From Bacteroidia bacterium (GTDB lineage: Bacteria; Bacteroidota; Bacteroidia; Bacteroidales; GWA2-32-17): 64,000 nt of DNA. Below are positions 19,344-39,267 of the stretch, one piece after another. The stretch spans positions 95,311-159,310 of the forward strand of contig JACREQ010000069.1 in NCBI GenBank assembly GCA_016218155.1, written 5' to 3'. Positions within the stretch are counted from its first letter, which is position 1, and every line of letters starts with the position of its first letter. The position numbers and the translations under genes were made by a program. Under the pieces are notes generated by a model that worked only from the letters and a program-made list of their open reading frames with translations, searched no databases and was not told the DNA's origin.

Positions 19344-20924
19344 ATGGATCAGATAAGCGAAATTAAAAGACGACGTACATTTGCAATTGTTAGTCACCCC
19401 GATGCAGGAAAAACAACATTAACAGAAAAATTACTTTTGTTTGGTGGTGCTATTCACGAGGCAGGTGCTGTAAAGTCGAATAAAATTAAGAAAACTACAG
19501 TTTCCGATTTTATGGAAATTGAAAAGCAGCGCGGTATTTCTGTTGCTACTTCAGTAATGGGATTTGAATACAAAGGCTATAAAGTAAATATTCTTGATAC
19601 TCCGGGTCATCAGGATTTTGCCGAAGATACGTACCGTACTTTATCCGCTGTAGATAGCGTTATTATTGTTGTAGATGCTGCAAAAGGTGTTGAAACTCAA
19701 ACTGAAAAACTTTCAAATGTTTGCAGAATGAGAAATACACCCACAATATTTTTCTTAAACAAATTAGATCGCGAAGGATTAGACCCATATAGCTTACTTG
19801 ATGAAATAGAGAAAAAACTAAATATAAGCCTTTGTCCGATGACATGGCCCATTGGAATGGGCAGAACATTCAAAGGTGTTTATAATCTCTATAACGAAAG
19901 CTTGAACCTTTTCAGCGGGCAGGAAAAACAACTTATTGAAGATTCAATAAAAATTGATTCGATTGAAAGTAAGGAATTAGAAAAACATATTGGTGAAGAA
20001 GCTGCTAATAAGTTACGCGAAGATATTGAAGTTGTTAGGGGAGTGTATCCAAAATTAAACAGAGAAGAATATTTGGAAGGGCTTGTTGCACCTGTGTTTT
20101 TTGGTTCAGCATTAAATAATTTTGGTGTAAACGAACTTTTAAATTCATTTTTAGAACAGGCTCCACCACCTTTACCATCAAATACTAATGAAAGAATTGT
20201 TCGACCCGAAGAAGAAAAATTCTCAGGTTTTGTATTTAAAATTCATGCTAATTTACATCCATTGCACCGTGCACGTATAGCTTTTGTTAAAGTGTGTTCA
20301 GGTGTATTTGAACGCAATAAACCATATATGCATGTGCGACAGGGGAAATGGTTAAAATTTTCAAACCCTACTTCGTTCATGGCTGCTAAACAGTCTGTTA
20401 TTGAAGATGCTTACCCTGGCGATATTATTGGACTGCACGATACCGGTAACTTTAAAATTGGCGATTCATTAACTGAGGGCGAAATATTAAATTTTAAAGG
20501 AATTCCAAGTTTTTCGCCAGAATTATTCCGTTATGTTGAAAACAGTGATCCTTTTAAATCCAAACAACTTGCAAAAGGTTTGGAGCAATTAACCGATGAA
20601 GGTGTTGCACAATTGTTTACCCATAAAACTTCAAACCGCAAAATTATTGGTACAGTTGGTGCTCTTCAGTTTGATGTTATACAATTCAGATTATTAAACG
20701 AATATTCTGCTTCATGCAGATACGACTCTATACAACTTCATAAAGCATGTTGGTTTGTTAGTGATAACAAAGCACAAATAGAAGATTTTAAAAAACGCAA
20801 ATACAACTTTTTAGCTGAAGATAAATATGGGAGAGATGTTTTCCTGGCCGATTCTGCCTTTAGCTTAAAAATGGCTCAGGATAATTTCCCGGATATTCAG
20901 TTTTATTTTAAATCAGAGTTTTAA
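19344..20924 (+). CDS. prfC: Peptide chain release factor 3
   Basis: [35 protein letters not shown]...[16 protein letters not shown] is the RF3 GTPase signature. The ORF track starts at the TTG at 19341. I prefer the adjacent ATG at 19344. Confidence 0.95.
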
Positions 20925-20932
20925 TTTATTTT

Positions 20933-20970
20933 TTGTCATTCCGAGCATAGCGAGGAATCTGGTTCGAGAT
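20933..20970. repeat. Short dispersed intergenic repeat, copy B (ttgtcattccgagcatagcgaggaatctggttcgagat)
   Basis: About 31 of 38 positions match copy C. A partial inverted copy (ttctctcgctagcatc) lies at about 20997-21025. Confidence 0.6.
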
Positions 20971-21151
20971 TAAATTACATTCGTTGAATAAGTTCTTTTC
21001 TCTCGCTAGCATCTTGCGAGTGAGTAGCATATTATGGCATATTGCCAATTTCACACTCGCAGTAAAAACGTTAGTTATGATTTGTGCCTTTGTTAGAATT
21101 ATTTCCAACAAACTAAATAGATTTTAAAATATAAGAAAACTTATCTAAAGT

Positions 21152-21643
21152 CTATACAACCTTAAAAGTATATTTCTTTTGCGAAAAATAGCTTACAAAA
21201 ACAGTAACTATAGAAACTATCATGTTAGAAATGGTAGGATAAAAGTTAAAGCCATCAACCAATAATTTTAATCCTGCATAATTTATCAAAAGATTAATTA
21301 AAAACACAACAAAATAACGGAATAGCTGAACATGTCCGCGTAAATCGGAATCGTTGAAAGTAACATATTTTTGTAACAAAAAACCTGAAAAAAGTACTAT
21401 AGGAAATTTGATACAAAAAGTTGCAATATGTGAGCTTAATGTTATGAAGCCTAAATTAAGCATCTGATGCTGTAAAACAAATGTGTAAATCAGAAAATAC
21501 AGAATCCAGTCAAATACAAGGTTTCCTGCACCGGTAATTCCATATCTGAAAAATTGTAAAGTTGTATATTTTCGAAAAGGGGGATAAAAGAAATCAATAA
21601 TAGTGCGAATCCAGCCACCAATTATTTCAAAAACATTTCTCAC
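21152..21643 (-). CDS. GtrA-family membrane protein
   Basis: 163 aa with four predicted hydrophobic spans. FFRYGITGAGNLVFDWILYFLIY is a typical GtrA-like N-terminus. Confidence 0.7.
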   Translation of the reverse strand: MRNVFEIIGGWIRTIIDFFYPPFRKYTTLQFFRYGITGAGNLVFDWILYFLIYTFVLQHQMLNLGFITLSSHIATFCIKFPIVLFSGFLLQKYVTFNDSDLRGHVQLFRYFVVFLINLLINYAGLKLLVDGFNFYPTISNMIVSIVTVFVSYFSQKKYTFKVV

Positions 21644-21686
21644 TTACAATTAATTTTAACAAATTAAATATGATATTTCATGACCT

Positions 21687-21694
21687 CAAATATA
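21687..21694 (-). promoter_or_regulatory. Candidate -7 box (TATATTTG) inside a conserved AATTATTTTGTATATTTGA motif
   Basis: Lies 43 nt upstream of the start at 21643. The same extended motif recurs at 29595-29602 and 32015-32022. Confidence 0.4.
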
Positions 21695-21787
21695 CAAAAT
21701 AATTAATATTCACAATGCTTGAGGCTTAATAAAAGTCATTATTTTAATATTATGGTTTACAATACCATTGTTGGTATTATTTTAAAT

Positions 21788-21832
21788 AAAAAACAATAAC
21801 ACAATCTTTCGCGCTTGTGTTATTGTTTTTAT
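21788..21832 (-). terminator. Rho-independent terminator downstream of the 375-aa gene
   Basis: 13-bp perfect stem aaacaataacaca/tgtgttattgttt with T-runs on both strands. Confidence 0.6.
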
Positions 21833-21876
21833 TAATTAAGAAAAGATATTATTATAATAACATGTAATATTTGTTA

Positions 21877-23004
21877 TTACATCTTTCTCTTTTTTTGAAT
21901 ATTAAATCCAAACATAAAACCTATTGTTGAACCATCTCTTCTTGGAGCAATATAGATATTTACAGGAATATTTAAATATCCTGAATGAAATGTTTTTCCT
22001 ATTGCAAATACTAATCCTGTAGATAAGCTTATATCTCCACGACTATCAAGCTGATTTTTTATTTCATATTTCACATAGTTATTCCCATCATCAAAATATC
22101 CGGGCTCGTCATGAAAAGCATTCGTCGAATCGGCTTTCCATTCATTGCTTATGTTCCATTCATTATTTCTGTCGTAATAACCACGTGCTTTTTTAATTAT
22201 TCTAAAAGTAGGACCAAAACCAAATTCCCATGCTCCTTTACCAAACCTGAACCCAAGCATTGGTGTATAGCTTGGAATAAATCTTCCACTTTCTAAACCT
22301 CCAATCATAACAATATTCTCAACAAGTGCCTGAAAATTTCCGGCACTTATATATTTAAATTCATGTTGCCATCCAAAGTTAAATGTTGCAGGAAACATAT
22401 CAAATCCACCTGGTTTATTAGTTGAGAGTATTTTTGCCGATTCGCCCATAGTATAGGAACAGCCCATCCTTGGACCATTTAAGCGTAAAGTATTTTTTGG
22501 ACTTTCGATAGGAACATTATAATCAATAAGCTGTTCAACCATTTCCTGATCAGGTTTAATTCCTAATAATTTTTTTACCGATATTTCAATCATTTTCTGC
22601 ATCTCCGGTAAATTCAAATACTCTGTAGTTTCGTTCTTTTCAATACTTGATGAATTTACATCAATAAGTCTTAAAGTTATAACAATCTTTTCTCCAAATC
22701 TTTCTGCACTGCCAGAAATCATTTTATCAACTTTTAAAAGTTTTCCTGTTTCTACAAGACATGATTTTGCATAGCAGTTGTTCAGATCAATATTATTGTT
22801 TTTAATAATATCGGCTACTTCATACTTGTCGAGCACCGAATAAACATTTGTTTTTTCTACTTCAAGTTTTACTAAGTATCCCATAGTTTGAGCATCCTGA
22901 ACAACTCCTTTGCTGTCTATGTTTAATACAGCTACACTTTGTTTTGTCTGTGCGAACATTCCTACTGCGAAGAACATTGCTGCAATTGTCATTATTGTTT
23001 TCAT
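21877..23004 (-). CDS. Hypothetical outer-membrane protein (periplasmic TolB_N/LpoB-like module plus C-terminal beta-barrel-like region)
   Basis: 375 aa with signal peptide MKTIMTIAAMFFAVGMFAQ. The N-terminus reads VAVLNIDSKGV...KMISGSAERFGEKIVITLRLIDV. The C-terminus is rich in aromatic/glycine strands (GFMFGFNI). Confidence 0.5.
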   Translation of the reverse strand: MKTIMTIAAMFFAVGMFAQTKQSVAVLNIDSKGVVQDAQTMGYLVKLEVEKTNVYSVLDKYEVADIIKNNNIDLNNCYAKSCLVETGKLLKVDKMISGSAERFGEKIVITLRLIDVNSSSIEKNETTEYLNLPEMQKMIEISVKKLLGIKPDQEMVEQLIDYNVPIESPKNTLRLNGPRMGCSYTMGESAKILSTNKPGGFDMFPATFNFGWQHEFKYISAGNFQALVENIVMIGGLESGRFIPSYTPMLGFRFGKGAWEFGFGPTFRIIKKARGYYDRNNEWNISNEWKADSTNAFHDEPGYFDDGNNYVKYEIKNQLDSRGDISLSTGLVFAIGKTFHSGYLNIPVNIYIAPRRDGSTIGFMFGFNIQKKRKM

Positions 23005-23037
23005 TTTGTTTAAAAATTAAATTTATTATTATTAACC

Positions 23038-23835
23038 TTACATCATTCTTTGTCTAATATTTATTACTATTATGTCTGAAGCTATTCCTACAAGAAATCC
23101 CAATAATACCATTCCTGCTTTTTTACTATGAGCTGCTCTTTTATAACCTTTCTTATACCAACTATTTGTTTTGTATAAATTTTTGTTAGGATTTTTTTCA
23201 AGCCCAAAGCAACTTTGCTTAGCAGGAGTTGAAGCAATAATTATTTCAGGAATCCAGCCTACTGGAAAAAACACTCCCGATACCACTCCACCGGCAAATG
23301 CATAATTCCCTGTATAATACTTTTTGCTGTCAGAAATACCAAGTTTAAAATAGAATTCCATTGAATCTGCCTGTAATTTTTGAGTAATTATTGATTTATT
23401 GTAATCATTGTTATTTATAACATAGCTGCTATCAGATTTTAATAACTGCCTCTGTACAATGGTATCTTTTTTTATAGCTGAATTTTTAATAACATTCATT
23501 TGTGGTGCAATAGATTTAATATAAGGTTTATTTTCTCTCCCAAAAATTAGTGCATTAGAATTAACTAATTCAATCCAGTCAATATTTTCTATCATCATAT
23601 CATGAAGGCTGCTTTCTTTTTCAAATACAATGTATAAAGGGTGAATTTCTGTAATAAGACAGTTTTTTATTATACCATCTTTTTTTAGAATTAAATTAAC
23701 TCTTCCAATTGATGAAAGAATCACTTTATTGCCATTTAAATTAGGAATGGAATCCGATGATTGAGAAAAAAGCTTTTCTGTATTGCTAAGCATTATTAGA
23801 ATTGCTATAATCTGAATTAAAATTGACTTTTTCAT
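23038..23835 (-). CDS. Hypothetical membrane-anchored protein
   Basis: I moved the start to the internal ATG at 23835, which gives the signal-like N-terminus MKKSILIQIIAILIMLSNTEKLFSQ. There are C-terminal hydrophobic segments. The stop lies 33 nt before the next gene, which suggests an operon. Confidence 0.5.
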   Translation of the reverse strand: MKKSILIQIIAILIMLSNTEKLFSQSSDSIPNLNGNKVILSSIGRVNLILKKDGIIKNCLITEIHPLYIVFEKESSLHDMMIENIDWIELVNSNALIFGRENKPYIKSIAPQMNVIKNSAIKKDTIVQRQLLKSDSSYVINNNDYNKSIITQKLQADSMEFYFKLGISDSKKYYTGNYAFAGGVVSGVFFPVGWIPEIIIASTPAKQSCFGLEKNPNKNLYKTNSWYKKGYKRAAHSKKAGMVLLGFLVGIASDIIVINIRQRMM

Positions 23836-23922
23836 AATCGTTTTTTTTATCGTTTTGATGATGTAAAATTGCAACCGAAAGCAGGCGAATAAAAACGGAT
23901 TTATAATGAGAGGATTATTAAC

Positions 23923-23951
23923 TCAATTGATATTCAATAATTCAATTGATA
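23923..23951. promoter_or_regulatory. Two direct copies of TCAATTGATA (possible operator) in a divergent intergenic region
   Basis: Exact 10-mers at 23923-23932 and 23942-23951, each containing the palindrome CAATTG. They lie between the divergent 23835(-) and 24060(+) genes. Confidence 0.25.
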
Positions 23952-24059
23952 AAAAATAAAACCAAATTGCATTTTTGCGATTTTTACTAAAGAATTTCAG
24001 CAAAAAATTATATATTGCAAAAGAATAATATTGAATTAATTAATTTCAACTAAAATTAA

Positions 24060-25073
24060 ATGGCTGATAATTCGATTAAAAACCCAATTCAGTTAAAATT
24101 CTTTGAAAAACTTAAGCAATCGGTTTCTCAAAACATTTCTGTTGCCAATGAAATTGCAGATGTGCTTGAGATTAGTCAGGATGGGGCATACAGAAGAATG
24201 CGCGGAGAAAGTATTTTAAGTATGGACGAGATGATAAAACTATGCAAATACTTTAAAATATCTCCCGATGTTTCAACAATAGAGGACGAAACATCTGCTA
24301 CATTTCATTTTCAAAGAATGATTCACGATGAGAACGGTTATGAAGAATATCTTAAAAATATACTTAGCGATCTTCAAAAGATAGATAATTCAAACCCAAA
24401 ACATATTATTTATGCAGCAGGAGATTTACCTATATTTATTCAGTTTATTTCTCCGGAATATTCTGCATTTAAAGCATTCTTCTGGCAAAAAGCAATGTTA
24501 AATATTCCATCAATGGATGGGAAAAAATACAGCAATAATAACATTAAACCAGAAATATCAGAATTATGCAAAAAAATATCTGATACTTACATTCGTATTC
24601 CCTCTACAGAGATATGGCATTTCGACACAATACACAGTAACATAAAACTTATTGAATTTGCCTGGGAATCGGGAATGTTCTTAACAATTGAGGATGCATT
24701 AATTGTATGCGAACAACTTTCTGACATGCTTTTGCTTATTGAAAAACAAGCAGAAAAAAGTTCTAAATTCAGTAACGAAGAGCGTTGGTCTTTAAATGAA
24801 GGAAACTTTACATTATATCAGAGTGATTTTGTGCTAACAAATAATCATATATTTGTTTCTGCCGGAAACACAAAAACTCTTTATCTTACACACAATACTT
24901 TTAACTCTATTTTAACAACAAACACAGTATTTTGCAACGAAACCGAAGAATGGCTTAAAAACCTTATCAGAAAATCGACTCAGATAAGCGGGGTAGGAGA
25001 AAAGCAACGCCATAAGTTTTTTAAAAATGCTCAGGAAAAAATTGAGAACCTTGTTATGAAGATAAAAGAGTAA
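24060..25073 (+). CDS. Putative HTH transcriptional regulator of unknown family
   Basis: 337 aa. The N-terminus ISVANEIADVLEISQDGAYRRMRGESILSMDEMIKLCKYFKISPD looks like an XRE-type helix-turn-helix. The C-terminal 250 aa are not recognisable to me. Confidence 0.55.
   Translation: MADNSIKNPIQLKFFEKLKQSVSQNISVANEIADVLEISQDGAYRRMRGESILSMDEMIKLCKYFKISPDVSTIEDETSATFHFQRMIHDENGYEEYLKNILSDLQKIDNSNPKHIIYAAGDLPIFIQFISPEYSAFKAFFWQKAMLNIPSMDGKKYSNNNIKPEISELCKKISDTYIRIPSTEIWHFDTIHSNIKLIEFAWESGMFLTIEDALIVCEQLSDMLLLIEKQAEKSSKFSNEERWSLNEGNFTLYQSDFVLTNNHIFVSAGNTKTLYLTHNTFNSILTTNTVFCNETEEWLKNLIRKSTQISGVGEKQRHKFFKNAQEKIENLVMKIKE
25037..25073 (+). repeat. Direct repeat copy 1, the true 3' end of the regulator gene
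   Basis: aaaaattgagaaccttgttatgaagataaaagagtaa. 34 of 37 positions match 29716-29752, and the last 24 bp are identical. Confidence 0.9.
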
Positions 25074-25131
25074 CGGTTGTATTTTCATACAGATTTTCCG
25101 ATTGATTTAATATTGTGTTAGTTGTAGGCAA

Positions 25132-26007
25132 TTAATATTTTTCTGGTAGTTGTAATTTTTTAATTTTTGCATCTATACTTAGTTTAGATAATCCCAATTC
25201 CGCACGTCTTATGTCCACCTCTTTTATGTTTTCAATTGGCACATAATCGGAAATTGTTCTAAAGGTTCCATATGTTTGAAAACCATTCATTGCATAATTG
25301 TACCTGTCCAAAACAATCGCATAATCACTAAAAGAAATATTTCCTTTTAAAGCTTCAGAATATAAAAGGGGTTTAAAAAATGATTCCCAATAATGTTTTG
25401 TTGATGTGTTAGTTGTAGAATGCATTATTAAAATAATAATATCTTGATTATAACCAAGCGTTTTAAATCCTGGATATCCTTGTTCATTAATAAGTTCCAT
25501 TACATTTATTGTATTAATAGAATCTATTTCTGCCATATATTTATACTTACAGGCATCTTCATTTCTGTTACGAATAAATTGATCAACTTCAATCCATGCA
25601 TTAATTTTCGCAAAAGTAGGAAAATCTATTTCTGATTTTACTGATTTAAGATTCTCCCATAATTTGGATTTTTTTGCAAATTCAAAAATTGAATCATTTG
25701 TTTTATCTTCTAAAATTTCATCCAATTTAAAATCATATTTGATCATGTCAGATATTATCCGTAATGTCATTACAGTATCCTTTTTAGAGGCGAAAGCTTT
25801 TGCTGCATCTAGATTATCAAAAGGAAAAAGTTTCCCGAAAGTTGAAAATATTTGATTATAAATAATAATAGCTGAGTCTGTATTATTCTCAGATAAAAAG
25901 TATTCTACTTTACTAGACAAAACAGAATATTGCTTATAATCTTGAGCAAATGTATTTACTGAAACTGAACAAATCAGAAACAAAATCAGGTTTTTAATAT
26001 TTTTCAT
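25132..26007 (-). CDS. Hypothetical secreted protein
   Basis: The track ORF (25132..26160) reads through the upstream repeat element. The signal peptide MKNIKNLILFLICSVSVNTFAQ begins at the ATG at 26007. An alternative ATG is at 26031. Confidence 0.55.
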   Translation of the reverse strand: MKNIKNLILFLICSVSVNTFAQDYKQYSVLSSKVEYFLSENNTDSAIIIYNQIFSTFGKLFPFDNLDAAKAFASKKDTVMTLRIISDMIKYDFKLDEILEDKTNDSIFEFAKKSKLWENLKSVKSEIDFPTFAKINAWIEVDQFIRNRNEDACKYKYMAEIDSINTINVMELINEQGYPGFKTLGYNQDIIILIMHSTTNTSTKHYWESFFKPLLYSEALKGNISFSDYAIVLDRYNYAMNGFQTYGTFRTISDYVPIENIKEVDIRRAELGLSKLSIDAKIKKLQLPEKY

Positions 26008-26012
26008 AATAA

Positions 26013-26195
26013 TTTTATTTGTTAAAGTCATTTTGTATTGCTTACAGCTAAAGGTTTGCGGTTGAATTTGGCAGGCTTTTATTTGCAGTTGTGCTTGCCC
26101 CTTCGGGGTCAAACCGCTAAGAATATTATTTATTGTTATATTTGTCAAGTTGCACTTCACTGCTCGTTGTTTTCGTAGGTGGTGTTACTGATTGT
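26013..26195. repeat. About 180-bp structure-prone intergenic repeat, copy 1
   Basis: Core: ggtttgcggttgaatttggcaggcttttatttgcagttgtgcttgccccttcggggtcaaaccgctaag...attgttatatttgtcaagttgcac. It aligns with 26884-27072, differing by a few substitutions and indels in the core. Confidence 0.8.
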
Positions 26196-26214
26196 TTATT
26201 TATTTTTAAGAGAG

Positions 26215-26853
26215 CTATTTTCCTTTTTGTTTGTCATCAACACAATAGTATCTAAGAATTTTCCCATTCATGTCAATGAATACATAAATTTCCATATTTG
26301 ATATGTCTTTAATGCAAAAATCAACTAATACAATTGCAAATTCATTATTGTTAATGAAATAAGGAGAGGTAGCATAGATCATACCTGCATTTTCTTTTGC
26401 ATAGCGATAACCATTAAATGAAAATATTTGTTTTTGCTTATTATTCAATTTAATCCTAGTATTTCTGCAATGATCATAAATGAAGCTACATTTTGCATTT
26501 TTTCTTAAGTATCTTGATAATTTTCCAGCATTTTTATAACTTGTAGAATCATAAGGATATATTTTGTGGAATTCATCAGTCAGATTTGAAATTTCTTTAT
26601 TACACTGAATTTGAGTTTGCCTTATTAAAGTCGAATCTGATTTTGAAAAAATAAATTGTAATTCCCAATCCCAGAAAATATTTGCAGATTGAGAGCAACT
26701 AATTATTAGGATTTTTGAATCTGATGAGGGTCGCTTTAAAAAAGACTCTTCAGAGTCAACAACAAACTTTAATGCGATTTTCTCAAAATTAAGTTTTTGG
26801 CAAAAAGTATGTAGTGACAAGAATAAGATGGGAACTAATAATAATTGTTTCAT
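26215..26853 (-). CDS. Hypothetical secreted protein
   Basis: 212 aa with signal peptide MKQLLLVPILFLSLHTFCQ. I see no recognisable domain. Confidence 0.5.
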   Translation of the reverse strand: MKQLLLVPILFLSLHTFCQKLNFEKIALKFVVDSEESFLKRPSSDSKILIISCSQSANIFWDWELQFIFSKSDSTLIRQTQIQCNKEISNLTDEFHKIYPYDSTSYKNAGKLSRYLRKNAKCSFIYDHCRNTRIKLNNKQKQIFSFNGYRYAKENAGMIYATSPYFINNNEFAIVLVDFCIKDISNMEIYVFIDMNGKILRYYCVDDKQKGK

Positions 26854-26883
26854 ATTCTTTATCTTATATTTGTTAATAAATCC

Positions 26884-27072
26884 TTAAAGTCATACTTGTA
26901 ATTGTTTTTTATAAATAAGCGGTAACGGTTTGCTGTTGAATTTGGCAGGCTTTTACTTGCAGTTGTGCTTGCCCCTTCGGTGTCAAACCGCTAAATATTA
27001 TACATATTGTTATATTTGTCAAGTTGCACCACCCACCCAGTTTTTGCCAAACGTGTGTTACCAGCTGGCCTA
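26884..27072. repeat. About 180-bp structure-prone intergenic repeat, copy 2
   Basis: It shares ttaaagtcat, ggtttgc.gttgaatttggcaggctttta.ttgcagttgtgcttgccccttcgg.gtcaaaccgctaa and attgttatatttgtcaagttgcac with copy 1. The ends GGTAAC...GTTACC form a short inverted pair. Confidence 0.8.
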
Positions 27073-27082
27073 CTTTTCATAA

Positions 27083-28312
27083 TTAAAATTTTCGTACTGC
27101 TCGAACACGATAATTGATATCTTTATCACCTACATAACCTGATCCCATATCTATATTAATGCTACAACAATTATTAAATCTTTCTGTTGAACTCATATAC
27201 CATGCATCGTTTGGTATTGGCAACCCTGTTGAATAATTATCACCATCATTCTCTAGTATAAATGTAATATGAAAAGCATTAACTAATAATTGTCTTAATT
27301 CAAAAACTGATGGTAGATACCAATCAGAAAAACCTCCAAATATATACTGTGTACATAATAATGCACCACTATTTGTATGACCTGCTTGTGATATTATTGC
27401 TTGTGTATTTGATTGACCATCCCAAGTACTTTCAGCTGTTGATCCAATTGAAACATTAATAATGTTGCTCCATGGCATACCTGCACTTAAATCTGCAAGG
27501 CTTGCAATTAAACCATGTTGACGAGAATGGTCAACCCAAAATACAATACCACCTCCAAATAATTCGCCAACATAATGACCGCTTAATGAATTAGCAACCT
27601 GTGCCGTGTCATTTGTTTGGGGATTGATTAAATTGTACGCATAATTAGCGGTGTCGGAATAAATAGAAGTTGTAGCTGTTTGAGAATTAAATGCGAATGA
27701 TGAAGAATCAGAAAAATTAGAAGTTGCAGCAGTTTGGGCAAAATTTGCAGTCAAAGCAGTAGTAGCAGTATTAGCTGTTGCTGCCGATTGTGCATTATAC
27801 GCAAATGTTGCAGTGTCTGCATAGTTAGCATGATTTGAAGAATATGAGAACACTGCAGTGTCAGACTGTAATGAATGAAATGCATAAGGAACAGCCAACA
27901 TTTGTTGAATACCGACTAATTTATATTCACTATTACCTTTTATATCAATTTCTACTTTTAAAAAGTGTTTATAACTACCCCAATCAATATTTAAGAGACT
28001 TGTGTCAGGACTTAAACCAGTTAAAACACCGTGTCCAATAACAACGGTAAATAATCCATTCTGATCTGTGTTTGCTGTATGTGTTTCTTGATAAACGAGT
28101 ATTCCTGACACTTCTTCCTGTAAAATTGTAAACCGGATATTTATGATTTTGTCTGATAAAATATTTCCATTTACATCCATTCCGGCAATTTCTTTTCCAT
28201 TTTCGTCAATAGCAACAGCCTGATATGTTATGCCATCAACAACCTGTGCTTTAACAGTATTTATTGAAAATATTGTTACTGTAAAAACAATATACATATA
28301 TAACTTTTTCAT
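27083..28312 (-). CDS. Secreted fibre-like protein with a C-terminal DUF1566 (Lcl C-terminal-like) domain
   Basis: 409 aa with a signal peptide. The N-terminus GITYQAVAIDENGKEI...VYQETHTANTDQNGLFTVVIGHG resembles the N-termini of Bacteroidota tail-fibre-like proteins, from memory. The centre carries A/T/S/N-rich pseudo-repeats (ADTATFAYN, SDSSSFAFN, SDTANYAYN). The C-terminus GGIVFWVD...GFSDWYLPSVFELRQL is DUF1566-like. Confidence 0.65.
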   Translation of the reverse strand: MKKLYMYIVFTVTIFSINTVKAQVVDGITYQAVAIDENGKEIAGMDVNGNILSDKIINIRFTILQEEVSGILVYQETHTANTDQNGLFTVVIGHGVLTGLSPDTSLLNIDWGSYKHFLKVEIDIKGNSEYKLVGIQQMLAVPYAFHSLQSDTAVFSYSSNHANYADTATFAYNAQSAATANTATTALTANFAQTAATSNFSDSSSFAFNSQTATTSIYSDTANYAYNLINPQTNDTAQVANSLSGHYVGELFGGGIVFWVDHSRQHGLIASLADLSAGMPWSNIINVSIGSTAESTWDGQSNTQAIISQAGHTNSGALLCTQYIFGGFSDWYLPSVFELRQLLVNAFHITFILENDGDNYSTGLPIPNDAWYMSSTERFNNCCSINIDMGSGYVGDKDINYRVRAVRKF

Positions 28313-28333
28313 AGTCGATAAATTTATAAATAT

Positions 28334-28966
28334 TTATTTTTTATTTATCGAAAAAACAAGTCCAAAATGCAATGATAATGCTCTGTTATACAATTTTTGA
28401 CTTTGATTTGGTTCTGAATTTTGCTCCAATTGATTCATGCCGGTTGAATTTCTAAGTTCAAACAATACGGATGCCGATTCGGTAAAAGAATACAATAAAC
28501 CTGCATACACATTCAAACCATAATCAGTATTTTTTATAGCATCCATTTTAAGCATATTATAGTAGCTCAAACCAATTGATTGTTCTGCTTTGAACAAATA
28601 TGAAAAATAAAATGAAGCTCCGATAAATGGCTTAAGCTTACCTTTGTTTACTATGTAACCACCACCAAGATTAAGGTCGGTATAATGTAAAGACCAATCA
28701 AGTTTTTGATTATTCAGAATTGAATTTGCACCAAGGTTTTTATAACCAAGTTCAATTCTGGCAAAAATATTTGATGAAAATATTTTACTATAATTCAAAC
28801 CATATGAATAATTAATGGCTGATGTTATATTATCATCTTTATTCCCTTCAGAATCTAAAAACTTGAACTTAGAATATGTCTGAGCGAAATGAAGTGAAAA
28901 ATTGTCTTGAGCATAACCTATGGTTACAATAAGACAAATTAAAAATGAAGTCAATAAATTTTTCAT
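28334..28966 (-). CDS. Outer-membrane beta-barrel (porin-family/PorT-like) protein
   Basis: The start at the ATG at 28966 gives signal peptide MKNLLTSFLICLIVTIGYAQ. It shows an alternating beta-strand pattern and ends in LHFGLVFSI. The gap to the upstream stop is 7 nt. Confidence 0.6.
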   Translation of the reverse strand: MKNLLTSFLICLIVTIGYAQDNFSLHFAQTYSKFKFLDSEGNKDDNITSAINYSYGLNYSKIFSSNIFARIELGYKNLGANSILNNQKLDWSLHYTDLNLGGGYIVNKGKLKPFIGASFYFSYLFKAEQSIGLSYYNMLKMDAIKNTDYGLNVYAGLLYSFTESASVLFELRNSTGMNQLEQNSEPNQSQKLYNRALSLHFGLVFSINKK

Positions 28967-28973
28967 AGTGATA

Positions 28974-29462
28974 TTAGATTTTAACAATTTTCTTTGTTAT
29001 TTGTAAGTTGTTATTAGAATAAATATTTATAAAATATATTCCTGTACCCCAATTGTCACATTTTATTTTGCTTTCATTGTTTCCTGCAATATTCAGAGTT
29101 GAAATTGTGTTACCTAAAATGTCTGTTACCAATATTGAATATGAAATGTCATCACCTACAATTTTTATCTGAAAATAATCATTAATTGGGTTAGGGTATA
29201 AGGACAATTCAATTTTCTTATTCGAGTAGATTTTTGCATTAATATTATTCACAGGTTGTTGAAATCCTTGTCGTATAGTATTATTTTCGGATGAAAAACA
29301 TGTTGTGTTTGAAGGTTGTCCAATTGTTTGTCGAAGAAGTATACCATCAAACATATTGTTAGAACCCAAACTGCTTAAAGACTGTCTGATTATATTTTGA
29401 GCATTTAATGTATTGATTAAAATTATTCCAATCAATAACAAAGTCAAGTTTTTAAAAGTCAT
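28974..29462 (-). CDS. Small T9SS type-A cargo protein with an RQ(S/T)(L/I)G / RQGFQQP motif N-domain
   Basis: 162 aa with a signal peptide. Motifs: IIRQSLSSLGS, LLRQTIGQPS and IRQGFQQPV. C-terminal tail: LSLYPNPINDYFQIKI...GIYFINI. Confidence 0.65.
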   Translation of the reverse strand: MTFKNLTLLLIGIILINTLNAQNIIRQSLSSLGSNNMFDGILLRQTIGQPSNTTCFSSENNTIRQGFQQPVNNINAKIYSNKKIELSLYPNPINDYFQIKIVGDDISYSILVTDILGNTISTLNIAGNNESKIKCDNWGTGIYFINIYSNNNLQITKKIVKI

Positions 29463-29594
29463 ATTATTTTTTCTGATTTCATCAAATTAGTCCTATATAG
29501 ACTTGTTGGCAAGACACTTATAGTTTATATATCATCATACATATTCAGATAGTTATAAACAAATAAGTATAACAAATCATAATTTTATTATAAT

Positions 29595-29602
29595 CAAATA
29601 TA
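29595..29602 (-). promoter_or_regulatory. Candidate -7 box (TATATTTG) for the three-gene module
   Basis: Minus-strand tattatttttttgtatatttga, 132 nt upstream of the start at 29462. Confidence 0.4.
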
Positions 29603-29715
29603 CAAAAAAATAATATTTTCACTCGTTCTCATCTTGCTTAAAAAAAAGCAAATCATAGCAAAAGATTCTGTTACAAGCGCGTATGATTGTAACATGGTGG
29701 ATTATAGTGAAATGT

Positions 29716-29752
29716 AAAAAATGAGAGGCTTGTTATGAAGATAAAAGAGTAA
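29716..29752 (+). repeat. Direct repeat copy 2, a relic of the regulator gene 3' end
   Basis: aaaaaatgagaggcttgttatgaagataaaagagtaa. In the regulator frame it reads KNERLVMKIKE-stop, against KIENLVMKIKE-stop in the real gene. Confidence 0.9.
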
Positions 29753-29809
29753 TATTTCTTTCTATTTTGTTATCGTTATAAATGATGAAGAAATTGGATT
29801 TTACAAAGG

Positions 29810-30091
29810 TTATTTATTTTTAATTAGTTTACCATCTTCAAAATTTTCATGATACTCTATATTTAAATTCTTATCATAACGTAACCATGAACCATTTTTT
29901 TTACTGTTTTTAAAATTACCTACACACCAAAGTTGTCCGGTTTCTCTATAAAATATCCATTCTCCTTCCATTAGCCCGGCTACGTATTGTCCTTTTGCCT
30001 TAATCTTACCGTTTTTAAAAAAGTAAGTTAACTTATCATCAATTAATTCATGAATCTTTTGCCCGTTTGAATAAAACTTTTTATCTAACAT
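29810..30091 (-). CDS. MORN-repeat-variant protein (YwqK-like)
   Basis: 93 aa with repeats YFFKNGKIKAKGQYVAGLMEGEWIFYRETGQLWCVGNFKNSKKNGSW. Confidence 0.7.
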   Translation of the reverse strand: MLDKKFYSNGQKIHELIDDKLTYFFKNGKIKAKGQYVAGLMEGEWIFYRETGQLWCVGNFKNSKKNGSWLRYDKNLNIEYHENFEDGKLIKNK

Positions 30092-30102
30092 ATTTTATTT
30101 TG

Positions 30103-30696
30103 TTATAATATTCTTTGCAAACCGCGAAATCCCCTGACTGCATAATATGAATCAGCACCATTATGATAGACAAAAACATGATTGTAACGACAATCACAAA
30201 AAAGTGCACCACCAAGTTTTCTGATTTCATCAGGTGTCTTTACCCAACTAGAAGTTTTTGTATCAAACTTGCCAAACTTCTGCAAATCCCTGTATTGTTG
30301 TTCAGTTAAGATTTCAATACCCATTTTTGCAGCCATATCAATAGCATTATTTGCTGGTTTATGCTCTTTCCTTGATTCAAGTGCTTCCCGGTCGTAACAA
30401 ATGCTTCTGCGATCCTTAGGGCTTTCTGGTGAACAATCATAAAAGATATATTCGCCGGTATTGTTATCATAAGCTATAACATCCGGTTCACCACCAGTTC
30501 TTTCCATTTCATTCAGACTCCAGATTTTTTCAATACTATTTTGACTTCCGGATATGCAGGCTTCTAGTTTTGCTTTTAGTTTATTCCATTCAATACTCTT
30601 ATGTCGGTTCATGTTTTTTTCAAAACGAACTTTTAAAACTTTTAATAGTTCTTCATATTGTTCTGGTAACAATATTTTTTTATTTTCAATTTTCAT
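30103..30696 (-). CDS. DUF4256-family protein
   Basis: 197 aa. MERTGGEPDVI...FYDCSPESPKDRRSICYD...KTSSWVKTP...YHNGADSYYAVRGFRG matches my memory of DUF4256. Confidence 0.6.
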   Translation of the reverse strand: MKIENKKILLPEQYEELLKVLKVRFEKNMNRHKSIEWNKLKAKLEACISGSQNSIEKIWSLNEMERTGGEPDVIAYDNNTGEYIFYDCSPESPKDRRSICYDREALESRKEHKPANNAIDMAAKMGIEILTEQQYRDLQKFGKFDTKTSSWVKTPDEIRKLGGALFCDCRYNHVFVYHNGADSYYAVRGFRGLQRIL

Positions 30697-30873
30697 GATT
30701 ATGATTTCTAATTAATTTCATTAACTAATCGAGAGAGAACAATATATTTTTAAAATTTTATTATAAAATTAAAAAATAGCACAACCAGTGTCTGGATGTC
30801 TCTGATAAATATCTGGATAAATTAATTTTCATTTGAGAAAGTTATATACCATTGTATTATTATGTGTAAAGTG

Positions 30874-31935
30874 TTATAATTTGATCAATTTTGTTTCTAA
30901 AATACTATCACCATCTTTAAAACGTATCATATATACTCCAACAGATAAATTACTTAAATCAATAATAGATTGTGATTCGTTAATACTTAGATTTTTTATC
31001 AACTTGCCACCAGAATCAAAAATTTCAACAAATAAATCGGTCAATGTTTCAATTTTAATAAAATCATGAAAAGGATTTGGGAAAACCTTAACCAAAAATG
31101 TGCCTGCTAAATATATTGTTTTATTTACTAACATGGTATCCATGCATCCCATGTTTGAAACTGCTATTAGTTTAATATTATAATTGCCTTCATTAGTAAA
31201 AAAATGAATAGGATTTTTAGTATTAGTAGAATCACCATCATCAAAAATCCATATAACATTACTACTTAAAGTTGACAGATCGTAAAATTGTATACTATCA
31301 TTTACTTTAGAAATAGAAGGAGATAAGCTAAAATTAGCTTCCGGTTTAGGATAGGCAGTTATTAAGTCAATATAAATTACAGATGTAGAACAACCAAATT
31401 TAGAAGTTTTAGTAAGCCAAACAGAAAATATACCATCATTGCAAAATGTATAGTCAGGATTTTTTAACGTTGAAGTGTCATTCGAAACTATTGAATCGCC
31501 AAAATTCCAAAAATATTTATCATTTTGATCCGGATTGATTTCTATAAAATCTATTTTAAGTGGTACACATCCTGTTAAATGGTCTGCAATAACACAAGTT
31601 GGAGGAAATGGCATTATGTGGATATAAATTGATTTTGAGATTTGATTACCTGAATAATCTTTTGCAGTTATTGTAATAACATTAGAGTAATCGGGATGAA
31701 CTAAATAAGGATTATTAATTATTTCACCTGAATCATTATAAAGCAAATATGGACCACCATCACCACCTGAAATTAAAGCATTAATAAATGTCGAATCACC
31801 AGGGCATAATGAATCTCTTTCAAGACTTAATGTTAAAACAATAGGAGATTTCTCTTTTGATTCGTAACAAATAGCATAAGAGATTTTTACAATAAATAAA
31901 AATAGAAAAAATAAAATCGAAAAAATAATTTTCAT
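30874..31935 (-). CDS. PKD-domain protein; T9SS type-A cargo
   Basis: 353 aa with a signal peptide. PKD motif: YFWNFGDSIVSNDTSTLKNPDYTF. C-terminal tail: VFPNPFHDFIKIET...GVYMIRF. Confidence 0.75.
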   Translation of the reverse strand: MKIIFSILFFLFLFIVKISYAICYESKEKSPIVLTLSLERDSLCPGDSTFINALISGGDGGPYLLYNDSGEIINNPYLVHPDYSNVITITAKDYSGNQISKSIYIHIMPFPPTCVIADHLTGCVPLKIDFIEINPDQNDKYFWNFGDSIVSNDTSTLKNPDYTFCNDGIFSVWLTKTSKFGCSTSVIYIDLITAYPKPEANFSLSPSISKVNDSIQFYDLSTLSSNVIWIFDDGDSTNTKNPIHFFTNEGNYNIKLIAVSNMGCMDTMLVNKTIYLAGTFLVKVFPNPFHDFIKIETLTDLFVEIFDSGGKLIKNLSINESQSIIDLSNLSVGVYMIRFKDGDSILETKLIKL

Positions 31936-32014
31936 AAGTTAATAATCCATCTATTAGAATTTTAAGTAATCCTTATTTTCAACTACTTATTTATTGTTAT
32001 TTATTTTATACTAT

Positions 32015-32022
32015 CAAATATA
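32015..32022 (-). promoter_or_regulatory. Candidate -7 box (TATATTTG) inside AATTATTTTGTATATTTGA
   Basis: Lies 79 nt upstream of the start at 31935. The 19-mer is identical to the one at 21687. Confidence 0.4.
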
Positions 32023-32123
32023 CAAAATAATTTAGAAACAAAATATTATGCTAATATTGGTTATTATAACAAACTTGTCGATTTCAAGCATGAATGCTTG
32101 CACAAAAAAGAATAAGTATAGAA

Positions 32124-33260
32124 TTATTTTAAAAAGTTAGTAACATCGGTAACATTACCTTTTTCGTCCCATTCTGTTTTTTCTAGATAAACGCCTTTGC
32201 GAAATGTTGCTTCTTTCTTTTTAGCACCACTTTCATAGTACCAAATATTTTTTCCATCCATTTCGTCGTCATTATAATTTGCAATAATTCTAGGTTGTCC
32301 GTTTGAATACCAGAATCGCCATTTACCTTCCTTTTTACCGTTTGAATATGTACCTTCAATTTTCTTTTGTCCGTTGCTATACCAGTATTCCCAGAACCCA
32401 TTTTTAATTCCTTTTTCATAAGCACCACGCAATCCTTTTTGCCCGGTTTCATAATATCCGTAACATTGGCCGGTATATGGGTCTTTAGCTTTCTTAAGAT
32501 ACATTACCTGCATTCTTTCTTCCAGTTGTGCATTATCAACACCCTGCGCAAAAGTTTTATCTAAAAGATTCTGAAAATAATTAATCAAAGGTTTTCTGAA
32601 AGTACTATTTTCTACCAGATTATTGTCTTTTCTATCCAAAACTTCTATGGTAACAGCAACATCATTTACCTGATCGGGACAATAGGGGCAGGGGAACCAC
32701 GAAACGGTTATTGTAACCTTATCAGATATTCCGTTTACCTTTACTTTTTTCCAGCGAATAAAATTTGATTTTATTTTTGCATCGCCACCAAAATTTTCTT
32801 TCAAAATACTAATATAGTTTGCTGCATTCTGAAGTTCGCGAGTTGAAAAAGTAAGCAAATATTGGCTTTTATCATTTTTTTTACTTTTCCAGCGAAGTGC
32901 TTCTATATTGTCATAACACATTGCAACAACTTCATTTAACAGAAAAAGCGAATCCTGTATTTCTACTCTTAGAAATTGTTTTAAATTAATTTTAGAAATT
33001 GGAAGTTTAATCTGCTTATAACCAATTGATGAAAAAATAATTGTGTCATTAATATACTTTGAATCGAAATTAAGTTCGAATTTGCCATCTTCTGCTGTAA
33101 TTGTACCTATTGTTGTAGCTCTTATATGAACAGCTGCAAAACTAACAGGAGCATCATTAGAATAGGCATATACACCACCTTTTAAAACTAAAGTATTAGT
33201 GGTTTGAGCAACTAAAACAAAAGGACAAATTAAAAATACTATAATGAATAATCGAAACAT
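32124..33260 (-). CDS. Carboxypeptidase-regulatory-like domain protein with C-terminal MORN-variant (YwqK-like) repeats
   Basis: 378 aa with a signal peptide. N-terminal domain: LKGGVYAYSNDAPVSFAAVHIRATTIGTITAEDGKFEL. C-terminal repeats: GIKNGFWEYWYSNGQKKIEGTYSNGKKEGKWRFWYSNGQ. Confidence 0.7.
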   Translation of the reverse strand: MFRLFIIVFLICPFVLVAQTTNTLVLKGGVYAYSNDAPVSFAAVHIRATTIGTITAEDGKFELNFDSKYINDTIIFSSIGYKQIKLPISKINLKQFLRVEIQDSLFLLNEVVAMCYDNIEALRWKSKKNDKSQYLLTFSTRELQNAANYISILKENFGGDAKIKSNFIRWKKVKVNGISDKVTITVSWFPCPYCPDQVNDVAVTIEVLDRKDNNLVENSTFRKPLINYFQNLLDKTFAQGVDNAQLEERMQVMYLKKAKDPYTGQCYGYYETGQKGLRGAYEKGIKNGFWEYWYSNGQKKIEGTYSNGKKEGKWRFWYSNGQPRIIANYNDDEMDGKNIWYYESGAKKKEATFRKGVYLEKTEWDEKGNVTDVTNFLK

Positions 33261-33400
33261 TCTAAATTTTTTGTCAAACCTACGGTAATTTTAAAAAAAT
33301 AGCAAGTTCGCATAATTGCGTGCTTGTTAGCAATTTGAAATAAATTACTGAATTTGCGATGAAGTATAGAGTGTTAAAAAACAGAAAATCCCGATGAGTT

Positions 33401-33784
33401 TTATTCAAATGATAACAGATTATTTGAAGGGATTTCCATTTTTAAAGATGTACTTTCGTTTTCATTTTCATCGGATTGTTCTTCAGTTATTTCAGAGAAA
33501 TCAACTGGTTTTTCTTTTCTTTTAGGCTTTGGTCTTGGCTGAACAACCGGAGTTGTAACAGGATTTACAAATAATTCGTTTGTTGCTAATTCAAGTCTGT
33601 TTGCTTTAATAAACATTCCCCATTCTAAAGCTTTAGAAATGCTTTTAATATTTAATTCAACTTCCCAATCATCAGAATTAGAGTTACGTGGAATTGCAGT
33701 AAATTCAGTTTTCTGAAGAAGACAATTATCAATAATTATCTGAATGTTTTTTGTTTTAGCTAAAATTCTGGTCTTTTCATTCAT
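33401..33784 (-). CDS. Hypothetical protein with an acidic C-terminal tail
   Basis: 127-aa ORF with a basic/proline linker (PRPKPKRKEKP) followed by an acidic tail. No domain recognised. Confidence 0.45.
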   Translation of the reverse strand: MNEKTRILAKTKNIQIIIDNCLLQKTEFTAIPRNSNSDDWEVELNIKSISKALEWGMFIKANRLELATNELFVNPVTTPVVQPRPKPKRKEKPVDFSEITEEQSDENENESTSLKMEIPSNNLLSFE

Positions 33785-33823
33785 ATTATTCTAACATTAA
33801 AATTTTTGTAGGTGTTTAGAATA

Positions 33824-33831
33824 CAAAAATA
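33824..33831 (-). promoter_or_regulatory. Candidate -7 box (TATTTTTG)
   Basis: Matches TAnnTTTG on the minus strand, about 40 nt upstream of the start at 33784. Confidence 0.35.
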
Positions 33832-33833
33832 AT

Positions 33834-33866
33834 AAAAAAGGCGCAGAGTTCATCTGCGCCTTTTTA
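33834..33866 (-). terminator. Rho-independent terminator after the M43 protease gene
   Basis: GC-rich hairpin ggcgcaga-gttca-tctgcgcc flanked by A- and T-runs. Confidence 0.75.
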
Positions 33867-33885
33867 AGATTTTTATAAAATTAAT

Positions 33886-36141: not shown

Positions 36142-36242
36142 ATTTAGCAGTTTTAAATGGTTATTAATACCGCTAATATAAAAAAAAAGCTTAAAAAATA
36201 CGATGATGAAAAATTGAAAAAACTATGTTTTAAAAATAGAAT

Positions 36243-36836
36243 TTACCAACCTGTAAATGAATTTCCACAGTTGTGTGAAAAAGGAGAGGAATAAGAATTA
36301 AACGGTGAATTGCCTTTATTATATTGCATTTCGAAATACAAGCTGGTTTTCTCATTAATATTATAACCAATACCTATTTTGCCACCCTTAGCATCATTAT
36401 AATAAGCAGGGTTTATATTGTTAGGAACATCAGGCTTTGCAAGTGAAGTATAAGCACCACCTGTTAGAAAAACTTTATTACTGATTTTATAAGATCCTTG
36501 TGTATAAAAAAAAGTTCCGTTTACATTATTCATTCTTGAACCACCCTCGGTATTAAAACTACTTGGCATACTAAAACTACTGAAAATTACACCGGCCTGA
36601 ACAGATAGTTTTGAAGTTAAATTAACATTATAATTCGGAGCCAAAAAGGAACCATAATAACCTTGCCCGTTAAAACTACCACCAAATGCACCTGCATTAA
36701 CGCCCCAACGACCAGAAACTCCTTTTTTAACCGGAGATAAATTAGATGGATTAAAATATTCAGTTGTAGAATCAGTCTGACCTATAGCCAGATTAAAACA
36801 GAAAAAAACTGAAACGAAAAACAATAAAGTTTTCAT
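36243..36836 (-). CDS. Small outer-membrane beta-barrel protein
   Basis: 197 aa with a signal peptide and glycine/aromatic-rich alternating strands. Confidence 0.5.
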   Translation of the reverse strand: MKTLLFFVSVFFCFNLAIGQTDSTTEYFNPSNLSPVKKGVSGRWGVNAGAFGGSFNGQGYYGSFLAPNYNVNLTSKLSVQAGVIFSSFSMPSSFNTEGGSRMNNVNGTFFYTQGSYKISNKVFLTGGAYTSLAKPDVPNNINPAYYNDAKGGKIGIGYNINEKTSLYFEMQYNKGNSPFNSYSSPFSHNCGNSFTGW

Positions 36837-39243: not shown

Positions 39244-39267
39244 TCATTAAAAAATATTTAATGATTG

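Follow-up and report, generated by a model that had tools for sequence, protein, structure and literature searches.

A displaced 3′ end of a regulator gene beside a putative insertion of five surface-protein genes in an uncultured Bacteroidia genome

Some genomic islands and prophages are found at the 3′ ends of tRNA, tmRNA or housekeeping genes, where they are inserted by P4-type tyrosine integrases. In these elements a block of identity runs to the exact end of the gene, and a displaced copy of the gene end is found at the far boundary. The CIMEs, or cis-mobilizable elements, are remnants of ICEs or IMEs flanked by att sites; in Streptococcus thermophilus, for example, a group of them occupies the fda 3′ end. 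They are a recognised class that keeps attL and attR as direct repeats, one of them being the 3′ end of a protein-coding target, with no integrase or other integration and transfer genes between them (PMC5704250; PMC6323972). Displaced gene ends are also known from Rhs, CDI and T6SS effector-immunity loci, in which a module of host-like composition coming from a related strain is anchored in a conserved upstream gene and the ancestral 3′ end is shifted downstream as a relic, or orphan end, with no recombinase (Kirchberger et al. 2017, PMC5361080). Integron cassettes are small, promoter-poor or self-promoted genes in the same orientation with repeats of about 100 bp between them.

The window, i.e. 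the whole 64-kb stretch of DNA analysed here, includes a locus that can be compared with all of these. The end of a regulator gene is found a second time beyond five genes for secreted or outer-membrane proteins. In the Rhs, CDI and T6SS arrays the anchor is a toxin gene whose C-terminus varies, whereas here it is a transcription regulator; a single non-coding 37-bp relic takes the place of an array, and the five cargo genes, of envelope or T9SS type, lie on the opposite strand. The locus differs from the CIMEs in that it has no decayed MGE genes, its composition is host-like, the site has no known cognate ICE, IME or integrase, and nothing so far points to excision or to other elements using it. 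As compared with the islands and prophages that target 3′ ends it is small (4.7 kb), with no integrase beside the target and no phage or conjugation genes. A resemblance to an integron cassette array, created by the same-orientation genes and an internal repeat named D1, was rejected: the D1 stem GGTT...AACC is opposite in polarity to the attC RYYYAAC...GTTRRRY, D1 is present at two junctions only with a partial copy elsewhere in the other orientation, and no IntI was found.

The regulator gene and the relic of its end

The features of the anchor gene and of the repeat are the following.

24060..25073, + strand: regulator gene, the putative insertion target, an ORF coding for a 337-aa HTH protein with a BetR/XRE-type N-terminus (NCBI protein MBI5540878.1)
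25037..25073, + strand: live copy of the repeat, AAAAATTGAGAACCTTGTTATGAAGATAAAAGAGTAA, the last 11 regulator codons plus the stop codon
25050-25073, + strand: perfect 24-bp core of the live copy, ending in TAA
29716..29752, + strand: relic copy, the displaced regulator 3′ end, AAAAAATGAGAGGCTTGTTATGAAGATAAAAGAGTAA

The regulator belongs to a conserved single-copy family of uncultured Bacteroidota with 204 homologues (41-96% identity among the 120 listed), and its N-terminus shows weak Pfam matches to BetR and HTH_3. The C-terminal motif LVMKIKE is restricted to this species group, other family members ending in ...SRIS... Exact-protein look-ups gave no record for the regulator of the window, i1, i2 or the upstream 265-aa gene.

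An earlier note, made from the sequence, had claimed that the last 37 bp of this gene recur at 29716-29752 and that the distal copy is a gene relic, and both claims held. The two copies are identical at 34 of 37 positions, with a perfect match over the final 24 bp including the TAA, and the distal copy read in the regulator frame is NVKNERLVMKIKE followed by a stop codon, with other stop codons preceding it. All three mismatches are located within the first 13 bp (p about 0.04 under an even spread). Homology ends abruptly on both sides: none was found to the left of the relic 37-mer (best upstream local score 24, against a null of 20.5 +/- 2.9), it stops immediately beyond the relic stop codon, and neither a pseudogene extension nor a further regulator remnant lies beside the relic. 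The left edge of the relic falls in an A-run, a possible microhomology. As to the objection that the core could be a common motif, a search of both strands of the 64 kb that tolerated as many as 3 mismatches gave exactly two matches of the 24-mer, the two copies described here. The relic junction (i5, relic, MORN gene, DUF4256 gene) is 100% identical over 3212 nt in an independent assembly, L001, the Logan assembly of run SRR12113407, which was built with k = 31; this supports the relic-side junction, which is not an assembly artefact. The distal 37-mer is a displaced regulator gene end, a genuine scar.

The genes between the two copies

The DNA between the two copies includes the features listed below.

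25074..29715, − strand: inserted block of 4.64 kb, with five genes that encode secreted or outer-membrane proteins; missing in the sister genome L085
25132..26010, − strand: i1, 292 aa, signal peptide; weak DUF6624 match (E 5.5e-5, under the gathering score)
26215..26853, − strand: i2, 212 aa, signal peptide; no family match
27083..28312, − strand: i3, 409 aa, DUF1566/Lcl_C-type secreted protein
28334..28966, − strand: i4, outer-membrane beta-barrel protein, OMP_b-brl_2
28974..29462, − strand: i5, small protein carrying a C-terminal T9SS sorting domain
26031..26155, unstranded: D1 repeat copy 1, upstream of i1, pairing with 26905-27029
26905..27029, unstranded: D1 repeat copy 2, upstream of i2
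29595..29602, − strand: Bacteroidota-type −7 promoter box, TATATTTG, upstream of i5

For i3, the nearest homologue other than itself shows 66% identity in an alignment that covers 44% of the query. The D1 copies show 86% identity over 125 nt and 91% over 103 nt, and the third, partial copy lies outside the block at 47023-47090; D1 had no match in Rfam, its folding z-scores were unremarkable, and its core was absent from the JGI contigs and from all loci. We take TATATTTG to be a promoter element on the basis of the published TAnnTTTG consensus, and the same extended box is found upstream of the PKD gene (32015-32022) and of GtrA (21687-21694). The earlier note had already assigned a promoter box and internal repeats to the interval. 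The comparison with the flanks that the note proposed revealed no difference from the host: the tetranucleotide correlation of the block is 0.975 (window mean 0.965), GC3 is 0.194 in both block and host, codon usage correlates with an r of 0.946, and the promoter boxes are of the host type. The composition of the block is indistinguishable from that of the host.

No recombinase or transposase domain was detected in the five interval ORFs using Pfam, NCBIfam and PHROG, and the ORFs of 90 aa or more across the 64-kb window likewise gave no tyrosine, serine or DDE recombinase, which for the interval agrees with what had been noticed before. The non-coding gaps of the interval (58, 204, 229, 21 and 253 bp) are short and therefore leave no room for a hidden recombinase. 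The block includes no MGE genes or MGE-like PHROG matches, its ends form no terminal inverted repeats (the score of 8.5 compares with a null of 9.5 +/- 1.4), the 24-bp core has no dyad symmetry, and a CTnDOT-type GTANNTTTGC target motif was absent from the repeat when inspected by eye. A transposon, IS or MITE was rejected, as there are no terminal inverted repeats and the repeat is imperfect and 37 bp long, as compared with the 2-14 bp of a target-site duplication.

The searches beyond the window gave no second instance of the block or of the 24-mer, and no integrase beside this gene family. The 24-mer had no matches in JGI metagenome contigs or IMG/VR viral contigs, and when the 150 ORFs that come directly after the regulator in 78 loci were grouped, no integrase was present among the recurrent families. 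Blastn of the block against PLSDB plasmids and INPHARED phages gave no match, i1-i5 had no tblastn match in the other 84 fetched loci (of which 83 belong to the regulator family), and in the 84 regulator loci (the window and 83 fetched) no other genome has a second copy of its own regulator end. Relic-like matches in two loci, L012 and L024, were marginal and at chance level, and were discarded.

The locus therefore has the direct repeats that rebuild the 3′ end of a target in an integrative element (34/37, with the 24-bp core reaching the stop codon) and has no encoded site-specific recombinase; at the sequence level only, it also shows what defines a CIME, att-like repeats that are kept while integration and transfer genes are missing. 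The view of the block as a mobile element is not supported. Since nothing shows that the block is mobile, it looks like ordinary strain-to-strain gene turnover, and the block looks like accessory cargo at a hotspot where surface-protein genes vary between strains.

The regulator stop codon in related genomes

The following features are located to the right of the relic.

29810..30091, − strand: MORN-repeat gene, 93 aa, 11 bp downstream of the DUF4256 gene; absent from L085
30103..30696, − strand: DUF4256 gene, the first right-hand gene in common with L085, where the regulator adjoins it
30727-32124: PKD gene, a second indel, absent from L085

The sister genome L085 (about 87-90% nucleotide identity) lacks all five interval genes, the MORN gene and the PKD gene. 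As a consequence of lacking both the block and the MORN gene, its regulator abuts the DUF4256 gene, which is convergent and 34 bp from the regulator stop codon. No flanking direct repeats were found at the neighbouring indels (the MORN gene and the PKD gene at 30727-32124). A second relative, L002, belongs to the same species (97%) and departs from the window within about 12 nt past the regulator stop codon, where it has a different, unrelated sequence with a convergent ORF of no known identity. Four different sequences therefore abut the regulator stop codon: i1 in the window, MORN after the relic, the convergent ORF in L002, and DUF4256 in L085.

These comparisons support, at the level of sequence, that the block is an insertion at the regulator stop codon. 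Of the claim of an integrative element inserted in the gene end, what stands is that the DNA between the copies is extra as compared with L085; nothing indicates an integrative mobile element. None of the three genomes of the clade present in the collections showed the predicted empty site, in which the regulator and the MORN gene would converge with nothing in between, L085 also being without MORN, and no donor-type genome with the regulator followed by the block and no relic was found. In the wider family the downstream synteny is not conserved, DUF2400 being the next gene in only 4 of 80 loci, and more distant relatives therefore cannot be used as an empty site.

The region of the anchor is a mosaic. 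L002 is 97% identical to the window over 21089-25085, yet only 91% over the adjacent RF3 gene, and about 60 bp of the window regulator (24680-24740) form a divergent patch where L002 is more similar to L085. The four genes from GtrA to the regulator behave as a unit, which in L085 has other neighbours on either side than in the window. The stop codon is a variable junction, and homologous recombination between lineages acts on the anchor region. The relic has the GAGAG state of the L002 and L085 alleles, and it matches L085 at 29/30 positions and the window's own gene at 28/30.

Possible mechanisms for the generation of the displaced end

The explanation that we slightly favour over att-type integration, with a probability of about 0.4, is that DNA of a related strain was taken in by one event of illegitimate recombination, anchored by homology. 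DNA in which the block was already located 3′ of its regulator would have entered the cell and paired with the recipient regulator as the homologous anchor, and its non-homologous far end, upstream of i5, would have formed an illegitimate join with the recipient regulator at a run of A's, 37 bp short of the end of that gene. As a result the live gene would end in donor sequence, and the last 37 bp of the recipient gene would be left as a non-functional scar, pushed 4.68 kb downstream and followed by the original downstream DNA of the recipient (MORN, DUF4256). No recombinase would be required, and the block would not be a mobile element. The donor arrangement and the illegitimate join are the steps that we infer. 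A relic with the GAGAG of L002 and L085 is what would be expected if the live end was imported and the relic is native, an argument that depends on one nucleotide and is hence weak. On the other side, the confinement of the mismatches to the first 13 bp would also be expected of an att core with diverged arms, and gene-end duplications beside islands are in general mostly left by site-specific integrases, both of which count against displacement. The displaced 3′ ends of T6SS and Rhs arrays have been ascribed to the same mechanism (PMC5361080), although the reported frequency of such recombination is lower by orders of magnitude than that of the ordinary homologous kind (PMC5361080; PMC3240628). 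Taken together, one-ended homologous plus illegitimate recombination with no recombinase explains the pattern at least as well as integration does.

An att-type integration is a somewhat less probable but serious possibility. A circular DNA with an attP mimicking the last 24-37 bp of the regulator would have recombined at attB by the action of a tyrosine or serine recombinase, so that 25037-25073 would be attL and 29716-29752 attR; with the recombinase gene lost or acting in trans, the block would now be a CIME-like, integrase-less islet flanked by att sites. The classical direct repeat rebuilding the target 3′ end, with a perfect 24-bp core and imperfections on the gene-proximal side only, fits this proposal, as does the existence of the CIMEs as a class, and the missing block in L085 and the different post-stop sequence in L002 are compatible with a reused attB. 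However, no recombinase was found in the block or in the 64 kb, and the usual position of an integrase, between the regulator stop codon and i1, is just 58 bp long with no pseudogene debris. The host-like composition and promoters, the lack of MGE genes, core dyad and terminal inverted repeats, and the unmatched 24-mer and block in the contig, virus, plasmid and phage collections also speak against it, as do the absence of homologues of the five genes in the other 84 fetched loci (i3 having no close homologue anywhere), of another second regulator-end copy among the 84 loci, and of a recurrent downstream integrase.

It is unlikely that the scar was generated by duplication or translocation of a regulator segment followed by deletion down to its last 37 bp, or by a Campbell-type, RecA-mediated re-insertion of a circularised chromosomal fragment with the gene end. 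The behaviour of the GtrA-to-regulator block as a unit would fit either route, and the relic sits beside DUF4256, where the end of that block lies in L085; but at least two events would be required, the opposite end of that block has left no relic, no other remnant of a second regulator exists, and 24-37 bp is at or under the usual minimum for RecA-dependent recombination. Still more doubtful is that the regulator stop codon could be a dedicated attachment site, reused by a recombinase encoded elsewhere that swaps integrase-less cassettes of surface and T9SS cargo in an integron-like manner, which would explain the four different sequences at one stop codon in three genomes. A chance match, a shared functional motif or an assembly chimera, for which it could be said that short A/T-rich repeats are common in an AT-rich genome, is effectively refuted by the 0 matches of the 24-mer in 100 dinucleotide-preserving shuffles and its uniqueness in the window, the preserved reading frame and stop codon, the species-group specificity of LVMKIKE, and the recurrence of the junction in an independent assembly.

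If excision or a repeated use of the 24-mer were shown, the locus would represent a Bacteroidota attachment site, new in kind, for cargo that has no integrase; otherwise it adds to the Rhs and T6SS loci for which displacement without a recombinase has already been proposed. In both cases the present evidence gives nothing new in mechanism or function. The locus shows, in a clean and verifiable way, accessory surface-protein genes entering a conserved neighbourhood in an uncultured Bacteroidia lineage, with a scar that pins the insertion point to the base.

The regulator 3′ end and its displaced copy

The regulator gene and a displaced copy of its 3′ end, hereafter called the relic, enclose a 4.64-kb block (25074-29715) that includes five minus-strand genes, named i1 to i5. 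To the right of the block are a gene coding for a 93-aa MORN protein, a DUF4256 gene, and then a long series of genes for T9SS/secreted proteins.

Features of the regulator, the block and the internal repeat D1
24060-25073, plus strand: regulator, 337-aa HTH protein
25132-26010, minus strand: i1, signal-peptide protein with a weak DUF6624 match
26031-26155: D1 copy 1, upstream of i1
26215-26853, minus strand: i2, signal-peptide protein, no family
26905-27029: D1 copy 2, upstream of i2
27083-28312, minus strand: i3, DUF1566/Lcl_C protein
28334-28966, minus strand: i4, outer-membrane beta-barrel protein
28974-29462, minus strand: i5, small protein with a T9SS sorting domain
47023-47090, strand opposite to that of the other copies: D1 copy 3, partial, outside the block

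The last 37 bp of the regulator gene (25037-25073) and the relic (29716-29752) are identical at 34 of 37 positions, and the perfect part of the match is the final 24 bp, TAA included, with the sequence CTTGTTATGAAGATAAAAGAGTAA. This 24-mer is not a common motif: when up to 3 mismatches were tolerated it was found at two sites only in the window, which are the two repeat copies, and 100 dinucleotide-preserving shuffles yielded no occurrence. Read in the regulator frame, the relic codes for NVKNERLVMKIKE followed by the stop codon, and other stop codons are located immediately 5′ of it. No similarity above background was found between the two loci to the left of the 37-mer or to the right of the stop codon, which indicates that the relic is a 37-bp fragment rather than the surviving end of a degraded pseudogene. 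The C-terminal sequence LVMKIKE is confined to this species group, while other members of the regulator family, which is conserved in uncultured Bacteroidota, end in ...LVSRIS..; the relic is therefore derived from this gene in this lineage. Thus the description in the earlier note of a direct repeat that recreates the regulator 3′ end, with the distal copy as a gene relic, was correct. An independent assembly (L001, Logan, run SRR12113407) is 100% identical to 27302-30513, a span including i3-i4-i5, the relic, and the MORN and DUF4256 genes, and since it reproduces the distal junction, this junction is not an assembly artefact.

Composition of the block and tests for a mobile element

The composition of the block, which the earlier note proposed to compare with that of its flanks, is indistinguishable from that of the host. 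The tetranucleotide correlation of block and window is 0.975 (equal-sized windows average 0.965), GC3 is 0.194 in both block and host, and the codon-usage r is 0.946. The extended TATATTTG promoter box is common to the block and to host genes outside it. The two complete D1 copies, of 125 nt and 86-91% identical, each constitute the entire upstream region, to the start codon, of i1 and of i2, two unrelated genes; the third lies 20 kb off between two convergent genes (87% over 68 nt). The minus strand of D1 has TTGACA-N16/17-TAnnnT and its plus strand has TATATTTG; D1 also includes a GC-rich CCCCTTCGGGG hairpin and, in the plus direction, a small ORF that is conserved (26038-26178 and 26930-27082). 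It was absent from Rfam, JGI contigs, and related loci. The i5 gene is bracketed exactly, stop to start, by 31-nt inverted repeats (28971-29001 and 29434-29464, 74% complementary), probably a product of chance in AT-rich DNA. Elsewhere in the window, a Moco (molybdenum cofactor) riboswitch (39125-39255, plus strand, 47.6 bits) precedes the genes for a MOT1-type molybdate transporter, mobA, mobB, moeA, and moaA; this is a known family in its expected context.

As the earlier note had stated, no recombinase was found in the interval: neither the five block genes nor the other ORFs of 90 aa or more across the 64-kb window showed a recombinase or transposase domain, and the non-coding gaps of the block are too short to conceal a recombinase gene. 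The block gave no MGE-like match in PHROGs and none at all in PLSDB or INPHARED, and it lacks terminal inverted repeats. The 24-mer has no meaningful dyad and was absent from JGI metagenome contigs and IMG/VR. The i1-i5 proteins had no homologues in the 84 further loci that were fetched, 83 of which belong to the regulator family, and of 5.8 billion proteins the one nearest to i3 showed 66% identity over 44% of the i3 length. A scan for duplicate regulator ends in 84 loci, the window included, found no convincing second copy in other species; two other loci gave matches, both at chance level. Among 150 ORFs located just 3′ of the regulator in 78 loci there was no recurrent integrase family, the recurrent families being housekeeping ones (aminotransferase, RecR, PfkB, RecQ, and others). 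The proposal of an integrative mobile element thus found no backing in any of these tests. CIMEs are defined at the sequence level by att-like repeats and missing integration/transfer genes (PMC5704250, PMC6323972). The block fits this definition, having att-like repeats without integration or transfer genes. It shows no trace of ICE/IME descent, and no cognate integrase is known for it.

The insertion site in related genomes

The clade of the window is represented by only three genomes in the collections. The sister genome L085 (Logan SRR22388113, a 58.6-kb contig reached via the DUF4256 homologue P0122) is collinear with the window over 21149-25072 (87%), 30105-30726 (89%), and 32125-42008 (90%), and its regulator stop is separated by 34 bp from that of the convergent DUF4256 gene. 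As a consequence, two segments are extra in the window. The first, 25073-30104, includes the five genes, the relic, and the MORN gene. The second, 30727-32124, carries a PKD/T9SS-tail gene of 353 aa that has a separate TATATTTG box; this segment is not flanked by a direct repeat and would be placed in L085 between the DUF4256 and CarboxypepD_reg/MORN genes. The same-species strain L002 (Logan SRR22388218) departs from the window at most about 12 nt past the regulator stop, and its remaining 74-nt tail, which matched nothing, appears to be the terminal part of a convergent ORF. The regulator stop codon is abutted by four different sequences (window, relic, L002, and L085). Of the empty site predicted in the earlier note, an emptier version does exist, in L085, but the precise pre-insertion arrangement, in which TATTTCTTTC and the MORN gene come straight after the regulator, was not found among the relatives. 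Downstream synteny is not kept in more distant relatives (4 of 80 loci have DUF2400 after the regulator), and the family-wide conservation that the earlier note regarded as contrary to its reading is not seen. In four loci with 40-70% identity (L003, L004, L009, and L013) a co-directional DUF2400 gene follows or overlaps the regulator, which hints at an older functional pairing lost in the clade of the window.

L002 is 97% identical to the window at the nucleotide level over the four genes that run from GtrA to the regulator (21089-25085) versus 91% over the adjacent RF3 gene (19602-20924), and the spacer between RF3 and GtrA cannot be aligned. L085 has the same four genes with different neighbours on both sides. 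Within the window regulator, a divergent patch some 60 bp long (24680-24740) accounts for 22 of the 38 differences from L002 in this gene; similarity to L085 in the patch is 0.95 for L002 versus 0.85 for the window. The patch has the appearance of a short tract of gene conversion or recombination that arose in the lineage of the window. The RF3-GtrA spacer includes REP-like GC-rich hairpins that differ between the window (about 20930-20965, GTCATTCCGAGCATAGCGAGGAATC) and L002 (about 1510-1560, GTCATCCTGAGG...AGGATGAC).

Origin of the scar

A gene-end relic arises only by insertion or duplication and never by deletion, which makes insertion at the regulator stop a robust conclusion; we estimate a probability of about 0.85 that DNA was inserted at this codon. 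Two single-event routes fit the relic. The leading one, which we favor tentatively, is homology-anchored illegitimate recombination. A related strain would have supplied DNA in which the block came after the regulator; this DNA would have entered and anchored in the recipient regulator, and its far end would have been joined illegitimately 37 bp short of the end of the recipient gene. On this route no recombinase is expected, the composition should be host-like, and the relic should have an abrupt left edge and carry the native allele. The left edge is abrupt, within an A-run, and the relic keeps GAGAG like L002 and L085 (29/30 to L085) while the live gene has GAGAAC; as a single nucleotide is involved, this allele state weakly suggests a native relic. 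Recombination between lineages is visible in the very anchor, as the L002 mosaic and the 24680-24740 patch. A displacement of this kind, acknowledged as rare, is the proposed origin of the shifted 3′ ends of T6SS and Rhs arrays (PMC5361080).

Att-type integration at the regulator 3′ end, by a recombinase since lost or acting in trans, was the model of the earlier note and is a somewhat less likely alternative: repeats of this type are, in general, most often produced in this way, and the model fits a perfect core flanked by an imperfect arm (all 3 mismatches are in the first 13 of the 37 positions, p ~0.04), yet it requires an unseen integrase and the clean loss of all element genes. Two hairpins directly to the left of the relic (29670-29693 and 29633-29650), consisting of a 7-bp inverted repeat (GTTACAA N10 TTGTAAC) and TTGCTTAAAAAAAAGCAA, might be the terminator of the DUF4256-MORN transcript, in which case it would sit in DNA that both insertion models count as incoming. 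Multi-step duplication-deletion or Campbell-type RecA routes are unlikely, a stop codon that is a dedicated attachment site served by a trans-acting recombinase is quite improbable, and chance or artefact is hardly credible.

The relic and the block are a real, precisely mapped recombination scar in an uncultured Bacteroidia MAG. They give no grounds for proposing a mobile element of a new kind; the site of the scar is a strain-variable hotspot of surface-protein genes.
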